This document shows positions 28,406 through 39,747 of a DNA stretch of 64,000 nt, piece by piece. Below the pieces are notes generated by a model. It saw only the letters and a program-made list of their open reading frames with translations. It was not told the origin of the DNA and searched no databases. The translations under genes and the position numbers were made by a program. Position 1 is the stretch's first letter, and every line of letters begins with the position of its first letter. The DNA is from Phenylobacterium sp. (GTDB taxonomy: Bacteria; Pseudomonadota; Alphaproteobacteria; Caulobacterales; Caulobacteraceae). Location of the stretch: assembly GCF_044358365.1 (NCBI RefSeq), contig NZ_JBIKNZ010000007.1, forward strand, positions 9,488 to 73,487, in the 5' to 3' direction.

Positions 28406-30367
28406 ATGATTGATCTGATTTTTCCCGACGGCACGAAACGAGAGTTCGAGGCCGGGGTCACGGGCAAGGAGGTCGCGGCGTCCATCGCGATCTCGCTGGC
28501 CAAACGCGCCGTGCTGGTGAAGCTGGACGGTGAACTGCTGGACGTGGACCGTGCGCTGGAGCGGGGCGGCAAGTTCGAGATCCTGTCGCGTGATGCGCCC
28601 GAGGCGCTGGAGACCATCCGCCACGACGTCAGCCACATCCTGGCCGAGGCGGTTCAGGAGCTGTTCCCCGGCACGCAGGTGACCATCGGGCCTGCCATCG
28701 AGGACGGCTTCTACTACGACTTCGCGCGTGACACGCCGTTCAGCCTGGATGACCTGGCCGCCATCGAACAGCGCATGAAGGAGATCGTCGACCGAGACGA
28801 ACCGATCGTGCGCGAGGTGTGGAGCCGCGACGAAGCCATCGCGCACTTCAAGTCCATCGGCGAGATCTACAAGGCCGAGATCATCGAGGGCATCCCCGCG
28901 GGAGAGGATGTCACGGTCTATCGACAGGGCCAGTGGAAGGACCTCTGCCGGGGGCCGCACCTGCCATCCACGAAGGCGGCGGGCAAGGCGTTCAAGCTGA
29001 CGAAGCTGGCGGGCGCCTATTGGCGCGGGGATCACCGCAACCCGATGCTCCAGCGGATCTATGGCACGGCCTGGGCCAGCGAGGCTGACCTGGCGGCCCA
29101 CCTGCACCGGCTCGAGGAGGCCGAGAAGCGCGATCACCGCAAGATCGGCAAGGCCATGGACCTCTTCCACATGCAGGAAGAAGCCAAGGGCATGATCTTC
29201 TGGCACGCCAAGGGCTGGACGCTCTATCGCACGGTGGAGGCCTACATGCGCCGCCGCCTGGACGCGGACGGCTACGTCGAGGTCAAGGCGCCCCAGATCA
29301 TGGATCGCGAGATGTGGGAACGCTCCGGCCATTGGCAGAAGTTCGGCAAGAACATGTTCACGTGCGAGACGGAGGAGGGTGAGAGCCTTGCCGTGAAGCC
29401 GATGAACTGCCCCGGCCATGTGCAGATCTTCAACCACGGCCAGAAGAGCTACCGCGACCTGCCGCTCAGGATGGCCGAGTTCGGCGCCTGTCACCGCTAT
29501 GAGCCGTCCGGCGCCCTTCACGGCATTTTCCGGGTGCGCGCGTTTACTCAGGACGACGCCCACATCTTCTGCCGCGAGGATCAGATCGAGGAGGAGTCCA
29601 CGAAGTTCGTGCGGCTGCTGAACTCGATCTACTCCGACTTCAACATGCACCTGGACAGTGTGAAGCTGGCGCTGCGGCCCGAGGAGCGTTTCGGTACGGA
29701 CGCTGTATGGGACGTGGCCGAACAGAAGCTGGACCGCGCCGCCCGCCAGGCCGTGAACATGCCCGTGGACCCGTTGCCTGGCGAAGGCGCCTTCTATGGG
29801 CCAAAACTGGAGTTCCACCTGAAGGACGCCATCGGCCGGACCTGGCAGTGCGGCACGCTACAACTGGACTATGTGCTGCCCGAACGCCTTGACGCCGAGT
29901 ACACCGCCGAGGATGGATCCAAGCAGCGGCCGGTCATGCTGCATCGGGCCATTTGCGGGTCGATGGAGCGGTTCATCGGGGTGATGATCGAAAACTTCGC
30001 TGGCGCCTTCCCGCTCTGGCTCTCGCCGGTACAGGTGGTTGTGACGACGATCACGTCCGACGCCGACGACTTCGCGCTGAAGGCGGCGGCCACCCTCCGG
30101 GCCAGGGGCCTGCGCGTCGAGACCGACCTGCGAAACGAAAAGATCAACTACAAGATCCGGGAGCACAGCCTGGCCAAGGTCCCCGTCATCGCCGTGATCG
30201 GTCGCCGTGAGGCCGAGGAGGGCAAGCTGGCGCTGCGGCGCTTTGGCTCCGACGGCCAGCAAATCCTGATGCTGGACGAGGCGGCGAACCTCCTTGCCAG
30301 CGAGGCGCAACCGCCGGATGTTGCGCGTCAGACGGTGGAGCGGGTCGGAGAGGTGCAGGCTGGATGA
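28406..30367 (+). CDS. thrS: Threonine--tRNA ligase
   Basis: TGS domain, [40 protein letters not shown]. Confidence 0.98.
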
Positions 30368-31296
30368 ACGGCGTCGCCGCCCCCAGGCGTACCGCAGAGA
30401 CCCTGACAGTCGCCGAGGTCGGTGAGCACCCGCGCGCCGTCTCGGTCGTCATGGTGATCTACTTCCCGGGTGAACCGATGAAGCGCAGCCTCGCCTGCGT
30501 TCTGGCGGACCCGGCGGTCAGCGAACTGGTGGTGGTGGACAACGGCTCCAGCGCGGAGGAGGCGGCGCACCTACGGGCCCTGGCCGTCACAGATCACCGC
30601 GTCGTCGTGGTCTCCGGCCAGGGCAACGTTGGCTTCGCGCGGGCCAGCAATCTCGGCGCGCGCAAGGCTGGCGGCGAAAGGCTGGTATTCCTGAACCCTG
30701 ACGCCTTCCTGCAGCCGGGCTGCATCGCTGAACTGGTGCAGGCCATCGAGAATCGCCCCGTCCCTAGCCTGGTCGGCGCCCGGGTGCTGAACGCTGACGG
30801 TACGGAGCAACGCGGTGGGCGGCGCGGCGAGATCACGCCCCTGAGCGCCATGCTGTCCTTAAGCACCCTTGCGGCGCGGATCCCGGCGCTCAGCCGCTTT
30901 GAGGTGCATTGGGAATCCGACACCTCGCCCGACCATATGATCGAGGTCCCGACCATCTCGGGTGCCTGTTTCTGCATGCGCCGGGAGGATTTTGAGGCCG
31001 TGGGTGGCTTCGATGAGGGTTATTTCCTGCACGTGGAGGACGTCGACCTGTGCTGGCGCGTGCGCGGCCAGGGGGGTGTGGTCCTGTTCCATCCCGGCGC
31101 TGAGGTCATCCACCTGGGCGGCACCAGTCAGACCAGTCCGATGAAGGTGGAATTCCACAAGGGCGTCGGTCTGGCCCGCTTCTTCCGCCGTCGGGCCGAT
31201 GGCGTGGGTCAGCATCTGACGGCCTGGTTGCTTTGGCCGGTGATAGTGGGCGCGGCGTTGCTGCGGCCGCTCATATGGCAGTTGCGTCGGGGGTAG
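30364..31296 (+). CDS. Glycosyltransferase family 2
   Basis: [39 protein letters not shown]. Confidence 0.9.
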
Positions 31297-31404: not shown

Positions 31405-33477
31405 TCAGAACTTCATTCGCACCCGTCCGACAACGCTGCGCGCCGCACCCGGCGTGATCCAGACGTTGCTGAAAGAGCTCTCGAGATAATAGCTGTTGAA
31501 CAGGTTTTCGACGTCCAGATGCAGGCTGGCCTTCTCGTTCAAATGATAGGCGATATTGAGCCGCATGGTCACATATTCTGGCAATTTAAAGCCGCTGTTG
31601 ATGTCGTCGCCGGGCCGTTTACCGACGTAGACAACGCCGCCACCGAGGCTGATCGAGCCGGGCAGTTCCTCATCGGAGCGCCAGTTGGCATAGAGCGCTG
31701 CCGCAGACTTAGGTATGTTGCTGAAACCGCTGCCGACGAACCCGGCTCGGGTGTCCCGGATGATCTTCGTGTCAGTATAGGCGTAAACCGCCGTGATCGT
31801 CGTGCGAGTATCCAGCCGGTAGTTCACGTCAATCTCGAAGCCCCGGCTTCGACCTTCACCAACGGGAATCGAGAAACCGCTGTTGGTTGGATCGTTGACC
31901 AGGATGTTCCTCTTGGTGATCTCGAAGACAGAGGCCGTCCCGGTCAGGGCGTTATCCAGCAGCGCATACTTGACGCCGGCTTCCAGCGCCTCCCCGCGCT
32001 CCGGCGCGAATGCAGCGCCCGAGAAGCTGGAACCCTGATTGTACCGGAAGGAGCGCCCCCAACTGGCAAAGACAGATACCTGATCATTGGGCGCCCATGT
32101 GATCGCCGCGCGGGGGCTGGTTTCAGACGGGGACTGTTTGCTGACGCTGTTATTGCGGAAGTTGGTGTTGGTCTGCTGGACCCAGTCATGCCGGACACCC
32201 AGCAAGACGGTGATCTGCGACCCCAGCGAGACAAGGTCCTGGGCATATATGCTCTGGCCCCGCAATTCCTCCAGGATGTCCTGGTTCAGCGTGGCCAGAG
32301 GCTTGGGCTGACCGTAGACCGGATTGAAAATATCAATGAGGTAGGGATTGGCCGCCGTCGGGTTGAAGCGGAAGAAGACCCGCTTCTGGTCAAAGGCGAA
32401 GGCATCCGCACCCACGCGCAGTTGGTGTTCAACACCCAGGATTTCCCGGTTGGCGCTTAGTTCAAGTCGGCCCGAGAGATCATCCCAGTTGTAATCGTGC
32501 ACCCGAAGCTGGCGGCGAAGCTGGCTGCCGACCAGAAGGGAGTTGTGCGTTGACTGACCTTCAAACGATCCCTCACGATACTGGACGCCGCCTTCGATCG
32601 CTATGCCCTCGGCGATGTCCAGCGTCAGGGAAGCCTGATGCTGGAGTGACTCCTGCCGCATCTTGCCGTCGTTGGGTTCGCCCAGGAAACGTGAACGGGG
32701 AAGCGCTTTGCCATTGCCGGCGACCGCTACCAGGCCGCGATCATGGGTGAAGTGAACGAGCGCGCCCTCAAACTGGTACAGCAGCCGCAGGGTCTCTGTC
32801 GGCTCCCAGGCGATTGATGGTGCGACCAACAGGCGGTCGCTGCCGACAAAGTCGCGGAAGCCGTCGGTCTCCTGATAGACGCCGATCAGGCGCGCCGATA
32901 GGCCTGCTCCCAGAGGTCCGCCAACGTCGATGGCGCCGCGTCCCGTATTCTGGGCGCCGTAGGAGAGTTCGGTCGACGCGTGAGTGTCCTTGAGGGGCGC
33001 TTTGGTGACAATGTTGATCGAGCCCCCAGGTTCGCCTTTGCCTGACAGAGCGGAAGCCGGCCCCTTCAGTACCTGGAATAGTTCGACGGTGGCCACATCG
33101 CGTCTGGCGTTGAAGCCACGGTTGGCTGTGAAGCGGTTCACCAGCAGATCGGGGCCCTGATTGATATCGCCCGAGAACCCGCGAATGGCATAGGCGTCCC
33201 AGGCGCCGCCGAAGCTGTTCTGCCGCGCCATGCCGCCTGCGTAGTCGAACAGGTCTGAAAGATTGGCGATTCCGGTTGTCGTGATCAGGGCCTCGTCAAG
33301 AACGCGAACGCTTTGTGGCAGGCGCAGGGTCTCGATCTCGATGCCATTGATGCTGGCGTTGGCCGCCCGCGATCCCGTGACGATGACGGCCTCTACGTCG
33401 GTCACATCGGCGGCCAGGGCCGGCGTCGCGCTGAACAACGCTGCGGAAGTCATCAGAATGGCGAAACGCTGGCTCAT
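31405..33477 (-). CDS. TonB-dependent receptor, probably zinc-related (ZnuK-like)
   Basis: Signal peptide, TonB box VEAVIVTG, QVLKGPASAL.G.GEPGG.INIVTK, C-terminal Phe; Zur box upstream. Confidence 0.9.
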   Translation of the reverse strand: MSQRFAILMTSAALFSATPALAADVTDVEAVIVTGSRAANASINGIEIETLRLPQSVRVLDEALITTTGIANLSDLFDYAGGMARQNSFGGAWDAYAIRGFSGDINQGPDLLVNRFTANRGFNARRDVATVELFQVLKGPASALSGKGEPGGSINIVTKAPLKDTHASTELSYGAQNTGRGAIDVGGPLGAGLSARLIGVYQETDGFRDFVGSDRLLVAPSIAWEPTETLRLLYQFEGALVHFTHDRGLVAVAGNGKALPRSRFLGEPNDGKMRQESLQHQASLTLDIAEGIAIEGGVQYREGSFEGQSTHNSLLVGSQLRRQLRVHDYNWDDLSGRLELSANREILGVEHQLRVGADAFAFDQKRVFFRFNPTAANPYLIDIFNPVYGQPKPLATLNQDILEELRGQSIYAQDLVSLGSQITVLLGVRHDWVQQTNTNFRNNSVSKQSPSETSPRAAITWAPNDQVSVFASWGRSFRYNQGSSFSGAAFAPERGEALEAGVKYALLDNALTGTASVFEITKRNILVNDPTNSGFSIPVGEGRSRGFEIDVNYRLDTRTTITAVYAYTDTKIIRDTRAGFVGSGFSNIPKSAAALYANWRSDEELPGSISLGGGVVYVGKRPGDDINSGFKLPEYVTMRLNIAYHLNEKASLHLDVENLFNSYYLESSFSNVWITPGAARSVVGRVRMKF

Positions 33478-33555
33478 TGGCTTTCCCCGGCCCGGTTCCA
33501 CACGAACACGGGACTGGTGACCGGATAGTGGTCACAAAAACCGAGGTCAAGAATT

Positions 33556-33572
33556 ATGTTATGATATAACAT
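33556..33572. promoter_or_regulatory. Zur-binding site between divergent TonB receptor and ABC genes
   Basis: ATGTTATG-A-TATAACAT, one mismatch to the ATGTTATA-N-TATAACAT palindrome. Flanked by TTGACC (minus strand, 33545-33550) and TTGACA (plus strand, 33577-33582). Confidence 0.8.
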
Positions 33573-33642
33573 CGCATTGACATCTGGCGGTCAGGTCTGC
33601 GATCAATCCTCTCCAACCATGATCCAGCGGGGGTGCAGAACC

Positions 33643-34377
33643 GTGGTCGAGCCTTCAGCAGACGTGCTTCTGCAAGTAAAAGACCTGCATGTTTCCTATG
33701 GCGACCGGGTGGTGCTGGACGGGCTCTCGCTGTCAGTTCGCAAAGCTGAGATCTATGGCTTGCTCGGCGGGAACGGCGCTGGAAAGTCGACGGCGCTGCA
33801 AGCCCTGCTCGGCCTCCTGAAACCGCAATCCGGATCCATAGACATTGCGGGCGTTGACCCTCGGGATCGCCCGGATCTGGCGCGGGAGCGGATTGCCTAC
33901 ATTCCAGAGAATGTGGCGCTTTATGATCACCTGAGCGCAAAGGAAAACGTGTCGTATTTCCTGAGCCTGTCCGGTGGGAGCCGAACTGCCGCTGAACTTG
34001 AAGCGGCCTTTGGCGCCGTCGGGCTGGCAAGGGAAGCCTGGGGGCAGCGGGTCGCGGGCTTCTCGAAAGGCATGCGCCAGAAGACGGCGATCGCTATTGC
34101 AATCCTGCGCAGGGCGCCGGTCTTGCTGATGGATGAGCCTACGTCAGGACTCGATCCGGGCGCCGCCGCTGATTTCAATGCCCTGTGTGGTCGCCTTCGC
34201 GATGAGGGCGCGGCGATTCTGGTCGTGAGCCATGACCTGCTGGGCGTCGTGGATCTGGCGGACAGGATCGGCTTTCTCGATCAAGGCCGGATCGTCGCCG
34301 AGGTCATCGCGGAGGGTCAGGAGCGCTTTGATCTCCGCGCGCTGCATGATCGTTTTGCCCGGGCGCGTCCGGCGTGA
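33643..34377 (+). CDS. ABC transporter ATP-binding protein (ZnuG-like)
   Basis: Walker A GGNGAGKS, signature FSKGMRQK, LLMDEPT, SHD. Start uncertain (33619 or 33643). Confidence 0.9.
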   Translation: MVEPSADVLLQVKDLHVSYGDRVVLDGLSLSVRKAEIYGLLGGNGAGKSTALQALLGLLKPQSGSIDIAGVDPRDRPDLARERIAYIPENVALYDHLSAKENVSYFLSLSGGSRTAAELEAAFGAVGLAREAWGQRVAGFSKGMRQKTAIAIAILRRAPVLLMDEPTSGLDPGAAADFNALCGRLRDEGAAILVVSHDLLGVVDLADRIGFLDQGRIVAEVIAEGQERFDLRALHDRFARARPA

Positions 34378-35822
34378 AGCGGGCTTTGGCAATTGCCGCA
34401 AACGAAGTTCAACGTCTTGTGCGCAGCCGGGTCGCATTGACGGGCCTGTTGATGGTGCTGCTGCTGACGGTCGCTGCCGCCATTGCGTCTTCCGCCTACT
34501 ACCGCGACCAGAGTGCGCTGCGAGAGCGGATGGAAGCCCAGGCGAACGCGGACTTCACCCAGCAACCGGACCGTCATCCGCACCGTGTTGTCCACTTCGG
34601 ACACTTCGCCATGCGCCCGCCCAGCGGGCTAGCGGCCATGGATCCCGGGGTGGAGCCCTTCACCGGTGTGATGGTCTATCTGGAGGGGCACAGGCAGAAC
34701 AGCGCCAACTTCGGTGATGCCCGTCAATCCTCATTGCTGGTCCGGTTTGGCCAACTCTCGCCCGCCTTTGTCCTGCAAGCGGTCGCCCCGCTGCTGCTGA
34801 TCTTTCTGGGCGCAGGTATGGTGGCGCGAGAGCGAGAGCGCGGGACCCTGCGGCAGATGATGCTCGCCGGGGCGTCAGGTGGCGACCTGATGATCGGCAA
34901 GATGCTGGCCCTGGGCGCCGCGGCGGCTGTCATGACGACGCCTGCGGTGCTGCTTGTCGGGAACCTCGGTCTCAATGGTCAGGTCGCAGCCATAACCGGT
35001 GGCATGATGCTGATGGGTTACGGAGCCTATCTGGTTTTCTGGGTCGTGCTCACTGTCCTGGTCTCCGCCTTGACCCCTAGCGCCCGTCCTGCGCTCGTTT
35101 TGCTCACGGCATTGTGGGCATTGAGCGTGGTCGTTGCGCCGCGCGTTGCAGCAGAAGCCGGCGCCGGACTTACCCAACTGGCCACACGCCTGGAGAATGA
35201 CGTCGCGATCCAGCGTGACCTGCGCGACATGGGCGACAGCCATGATCCAGACGATCCCTACTTCGACGCCTTCAAGCGGGCGACCCTGAAACAATACGGT
35301 GTGGCGCGGGTTGAAGACCTGCCGGTCAACTATCGGGGCCTGCTGGGCATCGAGGGCGAACGCATGACCGCCAGCCTGTTCAATCGATACGCCGCGCAGA
35401 ATTTTGCGGCGATGGCGGACCAGAGCCGGACAATGGATCTCGTGGCCGCCATAAGTCCAACCGTGGCCCTGCGTCGTCTCTCCATGACGACAGCCGGGAC
35501 GGATCTCGCCACCTATCGTCGCTTTATCGATGAAGCCGAGCGCTATCGATATGAACTCGTTCAGCGCTTGAACCGGATGCAGGCCGAAAGCGTCACCTTC
35601 AAGGACGATGCCGCCAAGAGCAATGATGCCGCCGCCGAGGCAAGAAGCCGCGTCAGCGCCGACAACTGGCGTGCGACGCCGGCGTTCCGGTTCCCGCAGG
35701 AACCCGCTGCGGAGACTGCCGCGCGCGCGACGCCGTCGCTTGTGGTCATTCTGGTCTGGCTCGCGCTCGCTGCGGGGTTCGCAAGCCTGGCAGCCTCGCG
35801 TCTTCAGCGGGTGGCCCGATGA
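34374..35822 (+). CDS. ABC-2-type permease, DUF3526 family
   Basis: HPHRVVHFGH, ARERERGTL, multiple TMs, large periplasmic helical region; 4-nt overlaps on both sides. Confidence 0.8.
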   Translation: MKRALAIAANEVQRLVRSRVALTGLLMVLLLTVAAAIASSAYYRDQSALRERMEAQANADFTQQPDRHPHRVVHFGHFAMRPPSGLAAMDPGVEPFTGVMVYLEGHRQNSANFGDARQSSLLVRFGQLSPAFVLQAVAPLLLIFLGAGMVARERERGTLRQMMLAGASGGDLMIGKMLALGAAAAVMTTPAVLLVGNLGLNGQVAAITGGMMLMGYGAYLVFWVVLTVLVSALTPSARPALVLLTALWALSVVVAPRVAAEAGAGLTQLATRLENDVAIQRDLRDMGDSHDPDDPYFDAFKRATLKQYGVARVEDLPVNYRGLLGIEGERMTASLFNRYAAQNFAAMADQSRTMDLVAAISPTVALRRLSMTTAGTDLATYRRFIDEAERYRYELVQRLNRMQAESVTFKDDAAKSNDAAAEARSRVSADNWRATPAFRFPQEPAAETAARATPSLVVILVWLALAAGFASLAASRLQRVAR

Positions 35823-37084
35823 GCGCCATGACCCGGGAGCTGTACTTCTTTCTTCGCCTGCGGTCGGGGATTGCCGCGCTCGCGCTCCTCTTGTTGCTGG
35901 GACTGGGCGGCGTCGCGTCGGGTCTGCTGGAAACGCAACGACAGCAGGACGCCATCACGCGCCTGCAGCCGTTGCAGGCGTCGGATGTGTCGGCGATTTC
36001 CGCCTGGGTATCGCGCAGCGGGGATCCCGGGAACGCGGCCTACTACACATTCCACGCCACCTGGAATCCGCCCTCGAATCTGGCCTTTGCGGCACTTGGC
36101 ATGGGCGATGTCGCGCCGTCGATCCTGAGGGTTCGGGCCCTTGGACTCGAGGCTCAACTCTACGAAGGCGATATCGTAAACCCGGAAGTCGCGATGCCGG
36201 GCCGCTTCGACTTCGCCTTTGTGCTCATCTACGTCGCGCCCTTGTTCGTCATCCTGTTGCTGCACGATCTGTTTTCTGCCGAACGGGAGGCCGGGCGCCT
36301 GGGTGTTCTTCGGTCGACACCGCAGGCGACGGCGCGGCTATGGGCGCCGAGGATCGCGGTGCGGCTTGCAGGGCTGCTTGTCGCCCTGGCGCTCCCGTTC
36401 CTGCTGGGAGCCTTGATCGCCGGAACCCCGGGGTGGAAGACCGCCGCAGTCCTTGGATTGATTGCAGCCTATCTGGCGTTCTGGTCGCTGCTGTCGCTGG
36501 CCGTCGGCTGGCGTGGGACAACGTCCATCGGCAATGGCATGACGCTCGCCGCGCTCTGGCTTGTACTGGCGCTGGTGGCGCCTTCACTCGCACACGTCGC
36601 GATCAATACCGCAGTCCCGCTACGGCAGGGCGCGGAACTTTCACTCCTGCAGCGAAACGCCGTACATCGAGCGTGGGATATACCGAAAACGGCGACCATG
36701 GACCCGTTCTTCCGGTCTCATCCGGAATGGGCGGGCACCGCGCCCGTAACCGCACCCTTTCACTGGAAGTGGTACTTTGCTTTCCATCAGGTTGGCGATG
36801 AGTCAGTCGCCACCCTGGCGCAGCAATATCGCGACGGGATCCTGGAACGGTCACGTCTGGCCGAGCAGGTTGGCCTGATCCTGCCGACGGTTGGCGTGCA
36901 ACTGGCCCTCCATCGCCTGGCGGAGACCGATCCACGTGCGCAACTCGCCTATCAGGACCGCATCCGCGCTTTTCACAAGCGCCTACGGACATTCTACTAT
37001 CCGTACATCTTCAACGAGCTTCCTTTCGGGATGGAGGATTTCGAAAGGGCGCCCCGCTATGCGCCTGAAACCAAACAGCCATGA
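35819..37084 (+). CDS. Second ABC-2-type permease, DUF3526 family
   Basis: RVRALGLEAQLYE, GRFDFAFV, EREAGRL, FHWKWYFAFHQVGD. Confidence 0.8.
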   Translation: MSAMTRELYFFLRLRSGIAALALLLLLGLGGVASGLLETQRQQDAITRLQPLQASDVSAISAWVSRSGDPGNAAYYTFHATWNPPSNLAFAALGMGDVAPSILRVRALGLEAQLYEGDIVNPEVAMPGRFDFAFVLIYVAPLFVILLLHDLFSAEREAGRLGVLRSTPQATARLWAPRIAVRLAGLLVALALPFLLGALIAGTPGWKTAAVLGLIAAYLAFWSLLSLAVGWRGTTSIGNGMTLAALWLVLALVAPSLAHVAINTAVPLRQGAELSLLQRNAVHRAWDIPKTATMDPFFRSHPEWAGTAPVTAPFHWKWYFAFHQVGDESVATLAQQYRDGILERSRLAEQVGLILPTVGVQLALHRLAETDPRAQLAYQDRIRAFHKRLRTFYYPYIFNELPFGMEDFERAPRYAPETKQP

Positions 37085-37156: not shown

Positions 37157-38059
37157 TCACCCCGGAACCGGAAACCCGCCTGCCCGGCTGACCGAAGCCG
37201 CCGGCGTCTTGCCCACCAGCGCTGACGCCCAGTTGCCGATCTCGATGAGCTTGCCCAGATCGTAGGTCGTCTCAAACCCGGCGCGTTCCAGCATATAGAC
37301 CAGATCCTCGGTGCCGATGTTGCCGGTTGCGTTGGGGGCGAACGGACAGCCGCCCAGGCCGCCGACGCTGGCGTCCAGAATGTCGACCCCGGCCTCGACG
37401 CCCGCAAAGGCGTTGGCCAGGCCGGTGTTGCGCGTGTCGTGGAAGTGCAGGCGCAGCGGAATGTCGCCGGTCAGCTTGCGGGCCGCCTCCACGCGGCGGC
37501 GCACCAGCCAGGGATCGGCGACGCCGATGGTGTCAGCCAGAGCGATCTCGGCCACCTTCAGGTCGGCGGCGGCCTTCACGATTTCCATCACACGGGCTTC
37601 GGGGACCTCGCCCTCGAAAGGGCATCCGAATGCAACGGAGATCGTCATAGAGATCGGCGGGTCACCCGGCTTGCGGGCCGCCACGATGGCGGCCAGCGCG
37701 TCCACCTGCTCGGCCGTCGAAGCGCCCTGATTGCGGATGCCGAAGCCATCGCTGGCGCAGACCACCACATTGGCCTCGTCGCACCGGGCTTCGACGCAGC
37801 GCTCCCAGCCCCGGGCGTTCAGCACCAGGCCGATCCGGGAGCGGCCCTCGGCGTGGGGCAGGGCGGCCATGATCTCCTCGGCGCCGGCCATCTGCGGCAC
37901 GCGCTTGGGATTGACGAAGGACACCACCTCCATGCGCCGTGCGCCGGCGGCCTCGAGCCGGGCGATCATCTCCAGCTTCTGGCCGACATCCAGCAGGGTC
38001 TTTTCGTTCTGCAGGCCGTCGCGCGGGCCCACTTCCACGATCTCGATCTTGCGTCCCAT
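37157..38059 (-). CDS. hmgL: Hydroxymethylglutaryl-CoA lyase
   Basis: EVGPRDGLQNE, HFHDT, GGCPFAP.ATGN. Confidence 0.9.
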   Translation of the reverse strand: MGRKIEIVEVGPRDGLQNEKTLLDVGQKLEMIARLEAAGARRMEVVSFVNPKRVPQMAGAEEIMAALPHAEGRSRIGLVLNARGWERCVEARCDEANVVVCASDGFGIRNQGASTAEQVDALAAIVAARKPGDPPISMTISVAFGCPFEGEVPEARVMEIVKAAADLKVAEIALADTIGVADPWLVRRRVEAARKLTGDIPLRLHFHDTRNTGLANAFAGVEAGVDILDASVGGLGGCPFAPNATGNIGTEDLVYMLERAGFETTYDLGKLIEIGNWASALVGKTPAASVSRAGGFPVPG

Positions 38060-39747
38060 TATGGTGTCTCCCGGGCGTCCATGTCGGGCGCCACATAGAC
38101 CCTCAACGTCATCGGGTCGCCCTTGGAGTAGTTCAGGCCCTCGATCTTGGCCACTTCCTCGGCCCGGCCGCCGCGCGCCTTCAGCGCGGCGCGGAAGGCG
38201 GCCTCCTCGAGATCCTCGACAATGGCGGGGCGGTTCTCGACCACGGCGCGGGCGGCTTCATCCGGCCCGTCCAGCTCGGTGGCGGTGCCCAGGGCGAAGA
38301 CCAGACTGGGCTCGGCGAACCCGGCCACAGCGACGGGCGCCTCGGCCACGCCCTGTCGCGGCAGCAGCCGGTTGTCGCCCATGGCTTGTTCCAGGCGGGC
38401 TGAAAGCCACAACGGTTCAAGGCGCGGCGCCAGGCCCGCCGCCAGCGCGCCATGACCCAGCACGCCCAGTGTCAGCGCCGCAGCGGTAGCGGCGACAGGT
38501 GCCTTGCGGATCAACAGCCCCGCGCCGACAAGACCCGCACCGCCCAGCAGCCCCACTGTCAGGGTTGCGGCCCATAGATCGCTCGGGTCTCCGTAGAGCG
38601 ACAGCAGATAGACCACCCCGCCAGCCAGCGCCAGGCCAGCCAGGGCGCAAAGGCCAGCGCCCATCCAGCGTGAGACCACGCCCATCGGCTCGGCTAGGGC
38701 ACGCGCCGCCAGCCAGGCCAGTGCGCCATAGGTGGGCAGCGTATAGTGGGGCAGTTTGGTGGGCAGCAGCTCAAACAGGATCCAGGTCGGGATCAGCCAG
38801 GCCATCGCGAACCGCACCCCGGGCTCCTGCCGCCAGCGCCAGGCGCCGATCACCGCAGCGGGCAGCAACAGGGTCATGGGAAAGGCCAGAATGGGCGTCA
38901 GCAGGGTGTGATAGCCGAACGGTGCGCCATGTGTTTCCTGACCACCAGCCAGCTTGGGCGCAAGGTCGGACCCCACCGCCTGGGACCAGAAACCGCCGTC
39001 TGTGGCGACGGTCACTGCCCCCGCCCAGGGCCCGACCACCGCAAGTACGATCATCAGACCCCACCACCATTGCAACTGGCCGAGCCAACCCGCGCGACGG
39101 TCGGCAAGGATCAGGGCCAAGATCGCAAGCAGAGCCACCATCGGCCCGACCGGCCCCTTTATCAGGGTCGCCAGGGCGATGCCGGTCCAGAATAGCCAGA
39201 CTGCTGCGGAACCTGCTGCCGGTCCGCCATTGCGGGCCGAATAGAGCCGGGCCAGGGCGGCCATCGCCAGAGTCGTCACGCCGGCCAGCATGGCGTCAGT
39301 CTTGGCGATGAAGGCCTCGGTCGAAAGCAGGAAGCTGGCCCCCAGCAGGGCGCCGGCTACCAGCGCCGTCCGGGCGTTGAAGAACGCCGCCGCCCCCCAG
39401 ACGCAGGCGGCCGCAGCCAGCATTGCGCCCAGCAGGGAGGGGATGCGGTAGGCCCAGATCTGTCGGGCTTCGGGACTGGAGAAGGTTGAGACGCTGGCTG
39501 CCTGTAACCAGTGAATACCCACGGGCTTCTTGAAACGTGGCGCATCCTGGAATTGGATGACCACGAAGTCATGGCTCTCCAGCATCTGGACCGTGGCCTG
39601 GGCGAAGCGGGATTCGTCCCGGTCGAGTGGCGGCATGGCCATCAGCCCGGGCAAGCCGGCCAGAAAGGCGATCAGGGCCGCAACCGCCGGACCCCGCCAG
39701 CCGCCGCTCCATTTCGCCATGATGTCGTCCAGCGTCATGCGACTCAA
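38059..39747 (-). CDS. ArnT/RgtF-like polyprenol-phosphate-sugar-dependent glycosyltransferase (GT83), probable lipid A modifier
   Basis: DRDESRFAQA, KKPVGIHW, AKTDA, LIKGPV, TKLPHY; about 13 TMs. Confidence 0.85.
   Translation of the reverse strand: MSRMTLDDIMAKWSGGWRGPAVAALIAFLAGLPGLMAMPPLDRDESRFAQATVQMLESHDFVVIQFQDAPRFKKPVGIHWLQAASVSTFSSPEARQIWAYRIPSLLGAMLAAAACVWGAAAFFNARTALVAGALLGASFLLSTEAFIAKTDAMLAGVTTLAMAALARLYSARNGGPAAGSAAVWLFWTGIALATLIKGPVGPMVALLAILALILADRRAGWLGQLQWWWGLMIVLAVVGPWAGAVTVATDGGFWSQAVGSDLAPKLAGGQETHGAPFGYHTLLTPILAFPMTLLLPAAVIGAWRWRQEPGVRFAMAWLIPTWILFELLPTKLPHYTLPTYGALAWLAARALAEPMGVVSRWMGAGLCALAGLALAGGVVYLLSLYGDPSDLWAATLTVGLLGGAGLVGAGLLIRKAPVAATAAALTLGVLGHGALAAGLAPRLEPLWLSARLEQAMGDNRLLPRQGVAEAPVAVAGFAEPSLVFALGTATELDGPDEAARAVVENRPAIVEDLEEAAFRAALKARGGRAEEVAKIEGLNYSKGDPMTLRVYVAPDMDARETP

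Follow-up and report, generated by a model that had tools for sequence, protein, structure and literature searches.

A Zur-boxed TonB receptor and a NosY-like ABC complex in a Phenylobacterium-like bacterium: an ortholog of Caulobacter znuK/znuGHI with a probable role in zinc acquisition

In Caulobacter crescentus the Zur regulon includes the TonB-dependent receptor ZnuK (CC1517) and the ABC system ZnuGHI (CC1518-1520), encoded by a receptor gene and a divergent ATPase/permease/permease operon (Mazzon et al. 2014, PMC4176598). Control of the znuK/znuGHI box by Zur and zinc is established by EMSA, lacZ fusions and microarray, and znuGHI is among the most strongly Zur-repressed genes, at 12- to 38-fold (PMC4176598). 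The mutants constructed in that work were znuK and znuL, not znuGHI (PMC4176598). Apart from this paper and a 2018 review table we found no literature on znuGHI function. The closest system of solved structure is NosDFY, which hands Cu(I) from NosL to nitrous oxide (N2O) reductase in the periplasm via an ATP-driven conformational change (PMC13685413). At the outer membrane, CntO of the pseudopaline system and Neisseria ZnuD are zinc-regulated TonB receptors, similar in this respect to ZnuK. ZnuABC is likewise a Zur-repressed ABC system for zinc starvation and its periplasmic site is rich in His and Glu, like the candidate site of ZnuH described below. However, ZnuABC employs the binding protein ZnuA and an ABC-3 permease (ZnuB), whereas the locus studied here has neither and belongs to a different ABC fold class (ABC-2/DUF3526).

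The locus lies in a window of 64,000 nucleotides, the whole stretch of DNA analysed, from a freshwater Phenylobacterium-like bacterium. As in Caulobacter, the TonB receptor gene diverges from an operon of an ATPase and two permeases, with a palindrome between them. The znuK-like receptor (31405-33477, minus strand) carries the Plug and TonB_dep_Rec_b-barrel domains and matches TIGR01783 with 299 bits; its open reading frame (31405-33501) reaches a GTG at 33501, the likely start being the ATG at 33477. The znuG-like ATPase (33644-34377, plus strand; ABC_tran 2e-31) is located in a frame that opens at 33577 and spans 33577-34377. Its real start is most likely GTG 33644, because the ATG of L010, a relative with 98% identity, is aligned with this codon and because this codon is preceded by a GGGGG Shine-Dalgarno-like run; L010 has a one-base insertion upstream of its ATPase ATG. 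The znuH-like permease follows (permease 1, 482 aa; 34374-35822, plus strand; ABC2_membrane_2 and DUF3526 in Pfam), and then the znuI-like permease (permease 2, 421 aa; 35819-37084, plus strand; DUF3526 in Pfam). The start and stop codons of the operon overlap as GTGA and ATGA, thus indicating translational coupling of the ATPase and permease genes, and the ZnuI stop is separated from the next gene by 72 bp. A TonB-dependent receptor (TBDR), a GT2 glycosyltransferase, thrS, HMG-CoA lyase and an ArnT-like protein are encoded nearby. Domain searches return the receptor, ATPase and two DUF3526 permeases that the earlier note on this DNA had reported, and bear out its statement that no binding-protein or metallophore synthesis gene is present at the locus. 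NosD, NosL and NosZ genes are also missing among the locus neighbours.

The best named matches of the locus proteins come from Caulobacter and Phenylobacterium. Identity to the C. vibrioides locus L014 is 69% for the TBDR, 65% for the ATPase and 64% and 61% for the permeases, and the gene order is the same. These measures identify the locus as the ortholog of Caulobacter znuK/znuGHI, a parallel that the earlier note had drawn correctly, and it is therefore already known as a kind. New here are the NosY-like permease fold, the conservation of a candidate His3-Glu site, the genome inventory and the adjacency of a TBDR across loci.

The palindrome ATGTTATGATATAACAT (33556-33572, no strand) between the receptor gene and the ABC operon is a perfect 7-3-7 inverted repeat; the earlier note, which recognised it as a Zur operator, had called it near-perfect. 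The core TGTTATnnnATAACA has a single copy in the window, while 0.11 matches are expected by chance with two mismatches allowed, and the perfect core has only two copies in the 3.67-Mb genome. The TGTTATGATATAACA core is perfect here, is invariant across 9 aligned loci and agrees with the published Caulobacter box. The operator TTATGTTATGATATAACATC differs by a single base from ATTGTTATGATATAACATC of Caulobacter znuK/znuGHI, and L014 bears exactly the published znuG operator. Further copies of the box adjoin genes of zinc homeostasis: three COG0523 genes, a second TBDR, a CDF exporter, a NicO-type permease and zur itself. Among solved structures the product of this zur is most similar to E. 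coli Zur 4mtd (7.5e-20) and the Fur-family regulator 7dh7 (7e-23). From the operator sequence and its distribution we infer that Zur controls the locus in this host.

The back-to-back TTGAC hexamers proposed earlier as -35 boxes are present, and their promoter role is that of candidates. The left one, TTGACC (33545-33550, minus strand; GGTCAA on the plus strand), could serve the receptor gene as a -35 box, and 8 of 9 Caulobacterales intergenic regions have conserved it. The right one, TTGACA (33577-33582, plus strand), lies downstream of the palindrome and could do so for the ABC operon; outside the window it is shared only by the nearest relative, L010. Most relatives have instead a TTGAAC or TTGATC hexamer upstream of the box, which is absent here. 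A sigma-70 consensus scan of the intergenic region called no promoter, as expected for alphaproteobacterial promoters. In sphingomonad loci AT-rich palindromes such as TGATATGATGTATCA are located upstream of the ATPase; a motif of this type was not found upstream of COG0523 genes in two sphingomonad genomes with such loci.

The search for related loci was run with 14 sequences closer than the 107-sequence set used for conservation. At least 50 of the 80 related loci have a TBDR as the direct neighbour of the module, and of the 67 with adequate flanks at least 57 have one inside the flank, the receptor subfamily being variable; no other gene, biosynthetic ones included, recurs with the module in the 80 loci. 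Zur boxes are linked to the module in Caulobacterales and Stenotrophomonas. We consider it very probable that the locus is a zinc-acquisition module acting after the receptor.

By hydropathy and an AF2 model (pLDDT 96.3), ZnuH has six TM helices and two periplasmic parts, loop 1 (aa 39-131) and the all-alpha DUF3526 domain (aa 259-455). The model superimposes on NosY with Z 22.4 and an rmsd of 3.3 A over 249 of 267 residues; NosY is also the nearest solved relative in the profile search (5.7e-11) and among the top matches of Foldseek. Rv1217c (Z 18.9), ABCA4 (18.1), ABCG2 (17.4), PmtD (15.2) and Wzm (11.5) follow. FtsX, LolC and MacB-like chains reach Z 5.9-6.8 only, against 15-22 for type V, and a type VII identity of the MacB/FtsX/LolCDE kind was rejected, since ZnuH has six TM helices, whereas the FtsX fold has four and holds its periplasmic domain between TM1 and TM2. 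As modelled, the ZnuH membrane domain is of the type V (ABC-2) fold class, and structure prediction and fold search thus agree with the exporter or mechanotransducer class to which the permeases had been assigned earlier. The closest solved nucleotide-binding domains of ZnuG are those of ABCA3, ABCA4, ABCA1 and ABCA7, then NosF (1e-39). In comparison with NosDFY(L) (PDB 7o0y, 7znq, 7qba), NosY matches the ZnuH membrane domain and NosF matches ZnuG.

ZnuI, whose TM residues were inspected in 20 sequences, has five TM helices, followed at the C-terminus by its periplasmic DUF3526 domain, as seen from hydropathy and alignment. The sixth helix is absent in the host lineage, where there is no room for it downstream, and in sphingomonads. 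ZnuH has the six helices per half that characterise type V and ZnuI does not, unlike the Caulobacter ZnuI, which is 451 aa long and retains TM6.

Most ABC-2/type V systems are exporters, and PmtCD, Wzm-Wzt, TarGH and Rv1217c-1218c are among the matches. ZnuGHI might accordingly export a zinc-binding small molecule or envelope factor, which ZnuK would recapture loaded with zinc. The receptor resembles the chelate receptors FhuA (1e-47), CntO (9e-44) and FoxA, its closest solved chains, CntO being no nearer to it than FhuA. However, nicotianamine-synthase-like, IucA/IucC and NRPS condensation domains are all missing from the 99.99%-complete genome. No biosynthetic gene accompanies the module in the related loci, and the invariant periplasmic site described next is unexpected for a small-molecule exporter. 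We therefore regard this option, including the zincophore exporter offered in the earlier note, as very unlikely. The locus differs from the CntO/pseudopaline system in having no genes for metallophore synthesis or export and in pairing ZnuK at the inner membrane with a type V ABC complex.

In ZnuH the conserved residues cluster in the periplasmic parts. The permease His cluster pointed out earlier, RHPHRVVHFGH, is located at aa 67-77 of ZnuH (34572-34604, plus strand), with the invariant His70 and His74 on a short helix; Glu104-Gly-His106 (34683-34691, plus strand) forms the second half of a candidate His3-Glu metal site. Among 107 relatives His70, His74 and His106 are invariant and Glu104 is conserved at 98%, all of them in the periplasmic loop, and this pattern suggests that they bind zinc. 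With a conservation threshold of 50%, none of the TM segments in the same relatives has a conserved His, Cys, Asp, Glu or Met.

Three His and one Glu are a common catalytic zinc site as well. The complex may thus supply the cell with no zinc, the site acting as a zinc sensor for gating of the ATPase or as the catalytic centre of a periplasmic enzyme that remodels the envelope under zinc starvation. The DUF3526 domain is compatible with such a role: folded alone (pLDDT 90.7) it has no known fold match, with nothing below E 7 in Foldseek and a best Z of 6.6 in VIA-align, to generic helical bundles, which does not imply novelty. Type VII and NosFY-type ABC systems are, moreover, ATPases driving periplasmic work. 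Nevertheless, the close association with TonB receptors from several subfamilies speaks against a role of this kind, the linkage to Zur boxes in two lineages argues for acquisition, and it would be odd to produce a zinc-requiring enzyme during zinc starvation. We consider it improbable.

A more serious alternative, which we regard as possible but doubtful, is that ZnuGHI is a true inner-membrane importer and the first type V metal importer to work with no binding protein. Zinc delivered by the TonB receptor, or a zinc chelate, would pass the ZnuH/ZnuI membrane domain in an ATP-driven manner, and ZnuA would be replaced by the periplasmic domains built into the permeases, which include the His3-Glu site. 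Some type V transporters do import, such as ABCA4 and the plant ABCG hormone transporters, and the model matches their fold group at Z 15-18. The pairing of receptor and ABC genes in most of the 80 loci, the strong Zur repression in Caulobacter and the genome inventory point in the same direction: in the 99.99%-complete genome there is no match to the ZnuA family (PF01297) and no ZIP transporter. A ZnuA-type protein encoded elsewhere was what the earlier note had named as speaking against its readings, and the search for one came back empty; a ZnuA-family protein was not found in the Caulobacter genome either. However, the ZnuH TM helices lack a conserved metal-ligand residue, TM6 of ZnuI is lost here, and the closest solved relative, NosFY, is not known to transport anything. 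Nor is the distribution complementary to that of ZnuA, as replacement of ZnuABC by an importer would predict. In 121 sampled genomes of the order the receptor-ABC pair occurs in 22, ZnuA in 13, both in 4 and neither in 90, so the module is no regular stand-in for ZnuABC.

We suggest that ZnuGHI is an ATP-driven motor for zinc transfer in the periplasm, analogous to NosDFY. We give this reading a probability of about 0.4 and prefer it to an importer without a binding protein and to an exporter; of the two possibilities raised in the earlier note the import reading thus comes second here, the zincophore exporter is not supported, and the NosFY-type motor was missed. It is favoured because NosY is nearest by both profile and fold and the ATPase is NosF/ABCA-like, because the conserved residues of ZnuH are mainly periplasmic with no conserved metal ligand in the TM helices, because the lack of TM6 in ZnuI would be poorly tolerated by a sealed ion pathway, and because a Zur-boxed NicO-type permease is on hand for the membrane step. 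It is weakened because receptor-plus-ABC modules usually supply both membrane steps and the genome has neither ZnuA nor ZIP. It is weakened also because NosDFY requires a separate NosD, whereas here the periplasmic part is built in and all-alpha, its best solved match being that at Z 6.6.

In the proposed motor mechanism, when zinc is plentiful Zur would occupy the palindrome and repress both divergent transcription units, and when zinc is scarce the receptor and the ABC operon would both be expressed. ZnuK, powered by TonB, would then import zinc to the periplasm, either free or on a foreign chelator. There ZnuG2-ZnuH-ZnuI, a type V complex of the NosFY/ABCA kind, would carry a large periplasmic cap with the ZnuH site of His70, His74, His106 and Glu104. 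Binding and hydrolysis of ATP in the cytoplasm would move the cap, which may take up zinc, or strip its carrier, at this site and then pass the metal to an inner-membrane permease, while the ZnuGHI membrane domain itself would carry no ion across. A candidate recipient is the Zur-boxed NicO-family protein, although the choice of this partner is speculative, and the Caulobacter control genome gave no match to the Pfam NicO model.

NosDFY and ZnuGHI would be alike in handling a metal in the periplasm without a solute-binding protein, as far as the role proposed for ZnuGHI holds. In contrast, NosY is a 276-aa homodimer docking the separate beta-helix NosD, whereas ZnuH and ZnuI are two different permeases which, unlike NosY, have built-in all-alpha periplasmic domains and the candidate His3-Glu site. 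The metal of ZnuGHI would be zinc and its partner is a TonB receptor; that of NosDFY is copper and its client nitrous oxide reductase.

The zinc route across the periplasm and the inner membrane is a question for many bacteria without ZnuABC, and within the sampled order a ZnuA-family protein is confined to the 13 genomes noted above. If the motor reading is true, ZnuGHI would be a second NosDFY-style periplasmic metal motor, for zinc, and if the importer reading is true, an exporter-fold importer without a binding protein; either would be new. In Caulobacter, whose ortholog is genetically tractable, the invariant ZnuH site is a well-defined target for mutagenesis. The module is widespread, being present in about 5% of the sampled Pseudomonadota genomes, and the permease family comprises more than 600 protein clusters at 50% identity; in the single organism where it has been studied, zinc regulates the module strongly.

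The TonB-dependent receptor gene lies on the minus strand (ORF 31405-33501, 698 codons; start likely ATG 33477); its product has Plug and TonB-dependent barrel domains and passes the TIGR01783 siderophore-receptor model with 299 bits. On the plus strand follow the ABC ATPase ZnuG and two membrane proteins, ZnuH (34374-35822; DUF3526 and ABC2_membrane_2) and ZnuI (35819-37084; DUF3526), their genes being joined by GTGA and ATGA overlaps. The ZnuG ORF opens at 33577, and alignment with nine related loci places the start at GTG 33644, which aligns with the ATG of the nearest relative (L010, 98% identical; one-base insertion upstream of that ATG). These domain matches bear out the gene set of the earlier note, a receptor, an ATPase and two DUF3526 permeases. 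The flanks are ordinary: thrS overlaps a GT2 glycosyltransferase gene upstream (28406-31296), and HMG-CoA lyase and ArnT/PMT-like glycosyltransferase genes lie downstream on the minus strand (37157-39747).

Exactly the same arrangement was described in a 2014 study of Caulobacter Zur as znuK (CC1517) and znuGHI (CC1518-1520), with the box ATTGTTATGATATAACATC (PMC4176598). There the genes are derepressed 12- to 41-fold in a zur mutant, and lacZ fusions were reported, as was Zur EMSA on the common intergenic fragment; mutants were made in znuK and znuL, not in znuGHI, and zinc import by an ABC-2 system lacking a binding protein is not discussed (PMC4176598). A 2018 review merely lists znuGHI under “ABC-type zinc uptake systems”, and our literature search found no later functional work on it. 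The C. vibrioides locus (L014) has the published box verbatim and the same gene order, and its proteins are 69, 65, 64, and 61% identical to those of the window. On these sequence grounds the window locus is the ortholog of a named system with validated regulation, as the parallel to znuK/znuGHI drawn in the earlier note implied. At 98% identity, the nearest genomes are MAGs from freshwater that carry the label Phenylobacterium sp. or Alphaproteobacteria.

The Zur-type operator ATGTTATGATATAACAT (33556-33572), previously called near-perfect, is a perfect 7-3-7 palindrome within a 166-bp spacer of 54% G+C (66% in the window overall). Its core occurs once in the window, with a chance expectation of 0.11 matches even at two mismatches, and the perfect core just twice in the 3.67-Mb genome. 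Scanning the genome for the box gave other sites on contigs C113 (L006:1784 and 7621), C88 (L007:6513), C126 (L009:2845), and C141 (L008:2275). One box precedes a single operon of two COG0523 genes, the only NicO-family permease gene of the genome and a Fur-family gene (zur), whose closest solved structures are E. coli Zur (4mtd, 7.5e-20) and the Fur-family regulator 7dh7 (7e-23). Others are found ahead of a second TonB receptor gene, between a third COG0523 gene and a divergent CDF exporter gene, beside PhoD phosphatase and iron-type alcohol dehydrogenase genes, and beside an M19 dipeptidase gene. Since these boxes adjoin typical Zur-regulon genes in a coherent pattern, we infer that the window box is a Zur site in this organism.

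Two M19 membrane-dipeptidase genes, both on the plus strand, are near Zur-box-like sites (L008:2434-3708 and L007:9118-10023), one directly downstream of a box and the other after the second Zur-boxed TonB receptor gene; the pair may be zinc-sparing or zinc-starvation paralogs.

Both TTGAC-type hexamers of the earlier note are present beside the operator as candidate promoter elements. Of nine Caulobacterales loci, eight keep the left one (GGTCAA), and the right one is shared by the window with its nearest relative alone. In Caulobacter the operator covers the -10 region of both promoters (PMC4176598), and the hexamers are therefore no more than candidates for promoter elements here. On the znuG side, a TTGAAC/TTGATC hexamer stands ~20 bp upstream of the box in most Caulobacterales loci (intergenic alignment A5; L013, L014, L016, L018, and L019). 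The window has CACAAAA in its place (within 33520-33550) and TTGACA downstream of the box instead; the ABC operon promoter may have been rebuilt.

ZnuH is predicted to consist of TM1 (residues 20-38), a periplasmic loop 1 of about 93 aa (39-131), TM2-TM5 (132-258), a periplasmic domain of about 197 aa (259-455), and TM6 (456-474). In a profile search of the PDB with ZnuH, NosY, the membrane part of the copper-delivery complex NosDFY, came top (5.7e-11) and PmtD second. NosY chains also rank first in Foldseek with the AlphaFold model (107-sequence alignment; pLDDT 96.3, pTM 0.92), and a Foldseek-independent search gave NosY at Z 22.4 (rmsd 3.3 Å, 249 of 267 residues), followed by Rv1217c, ABCA4, ABCA3, ABCG2, PmtD, CcmB, KpsM, Wzm, and TarG. 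An FtsX/LolC/MacB-type fold was rejected, reaching Z 6-7 only, in contrast to 22.4 for NosY. ZnuG most closely resembles NosF and the nucleotide-binding domains of ABCA proteins. These matches place ZnuGHI among type V ABC systems, with NosFY as the nearest solved relative. Modelled by itself (pLDDT 90.7), the DUF3526 domain forms an all-alpha bundle, for which no convincing solved look-alike was found.

ZnuH and ZnuI also occur in nature as single-chain fusions of 966-967 aa (P0329 and P0379), which fits their acting as one heterodimeric membrane unit; the fusions keep the equivalents of H70, H74, and H106 in the first half only. ZnuI lacks TM6 in the window and in sphingomonad forms, and has it in Caulobacter. 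The window protein has five TM helices and a periplasmic C-terminus; lengths are 448-458 aa with the sixth helix (Caulobacter, most Phenylobacterium) and 416-421 aa without it (window lineage, sphingomonads).

Among 107 ZnuH relatives (mean identity 37%), three residues are invariant (His70, His74, and His106), Glu104 is kept in 98%, and Gln64, Pro69, and Asn109 in more than 90% each; all seven lie within periplasmic loop 1. His290 of the DUF3526 domain is 88% conserved. In the TM segments of these sequences, conservation of His, Cys, Asp, Glu, and Met stays below 50% at every position. In the model a short helix bears His70 and His74 one turn apart, and Glu104-x-His106 follows a strand, an arrangement typical of His3-Glu zinc sites; we regard it as a candidate site. 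ZnuI has no invariant His, and its FHWKWYFAFHQ motif is retained among close relatives only. We suggest, with a probability of about 0.85, that the locus is a module for zinc acquisition under Zur repression, in which the ABC part takes over from the receptor and binds periplasmic zinc.

NosDFY uses ATP-driven conformational change to transfer Cu(I), within the periplasm, from NosL to nitrous oxide reductase (PMC13685413). By analogy, ZnuGHI would work as a similar transfer motor. We propose this tentatively, from the kinship to NosFY, the concentration of conserved residues in the periplasm, the membrane devoid of conserved ligands, a ZnuI that can do without TM6, and the Zur-boxed permease encoded in the genome. 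The 99.99%-complete assembly encodes exactly two DUF3526 proteins, and no ZnuA-family protein or ZIP transporter was found in it. This double absence, together with the logic of a receptor-plus-ABC module, speaks for ZnuGHI as a true importer without a binding protein, which we consider rather doubtful. Searches of the same assembly for nicotianamine-synthase-like, IucA/IucC, and NRPS condensation domains were also empty, so that no known home-made metallophore route is visible; the absence of binding protein and metallophore synthesis noted earlier from the window holds genome-wide for these families. Export of a zincophore by ZnuGHI is left without any biosynthetic support and is very improbable, slightly more so than a role as sensor or enzyme, itself improbable. 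The mechanism of ZnuGHI is now sharply testable.

The order ATPase-ZnuH-ZnuI holds in all but one of 80 related loci (79), which come from Caulobacterales, Sphingomonadales, Xanthomonadales, Burkholderiales, Niveispirillum, and one myxobacterium. A TonB receptor directly adjoins the module in at least 50 of the 80. Where the flanks are sufficient (67 loci), at least 57 have one in the flank; receptor subfamily and orientation differ across loci. No other neighbour recurs broadly among the 80. Strong Zur boxes precede the ATPase gene in Caulobacterales and Stenotrophomonas. The DUF3526 pair is patchy, occurring in 22 of the 121 genomes sampled from the order and in 20 of 401 from the phylum. 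As ZnuA occurs in 13 of those 121, both systems in 4, and neither in 90, the DUF3526 system is not a regular replacement for ZnuABC.

Upstream of the ATPase gene, sphingomonad modules (L065:5801, L050:8152, L074:8150, and others) have AT-rich palindromes (TGATATnnnATATCA type), intermediate between the Zur and Fur consensus, and either protein is a candidate regulator. An M14 zinc-carboxypeptidase-domain protein of ~600 aa is encoded beside the module in 18 of the 80 loci (L056:6214-8046 and L031:350-2134, both minus strand, and 16 further sphingomonad loci). Two loci carry a plus-strand ORF of ~1285 aa with no family assigned (L056:13817-17680 and L083:13884-17738), and another TonB receptor also follows the module there.
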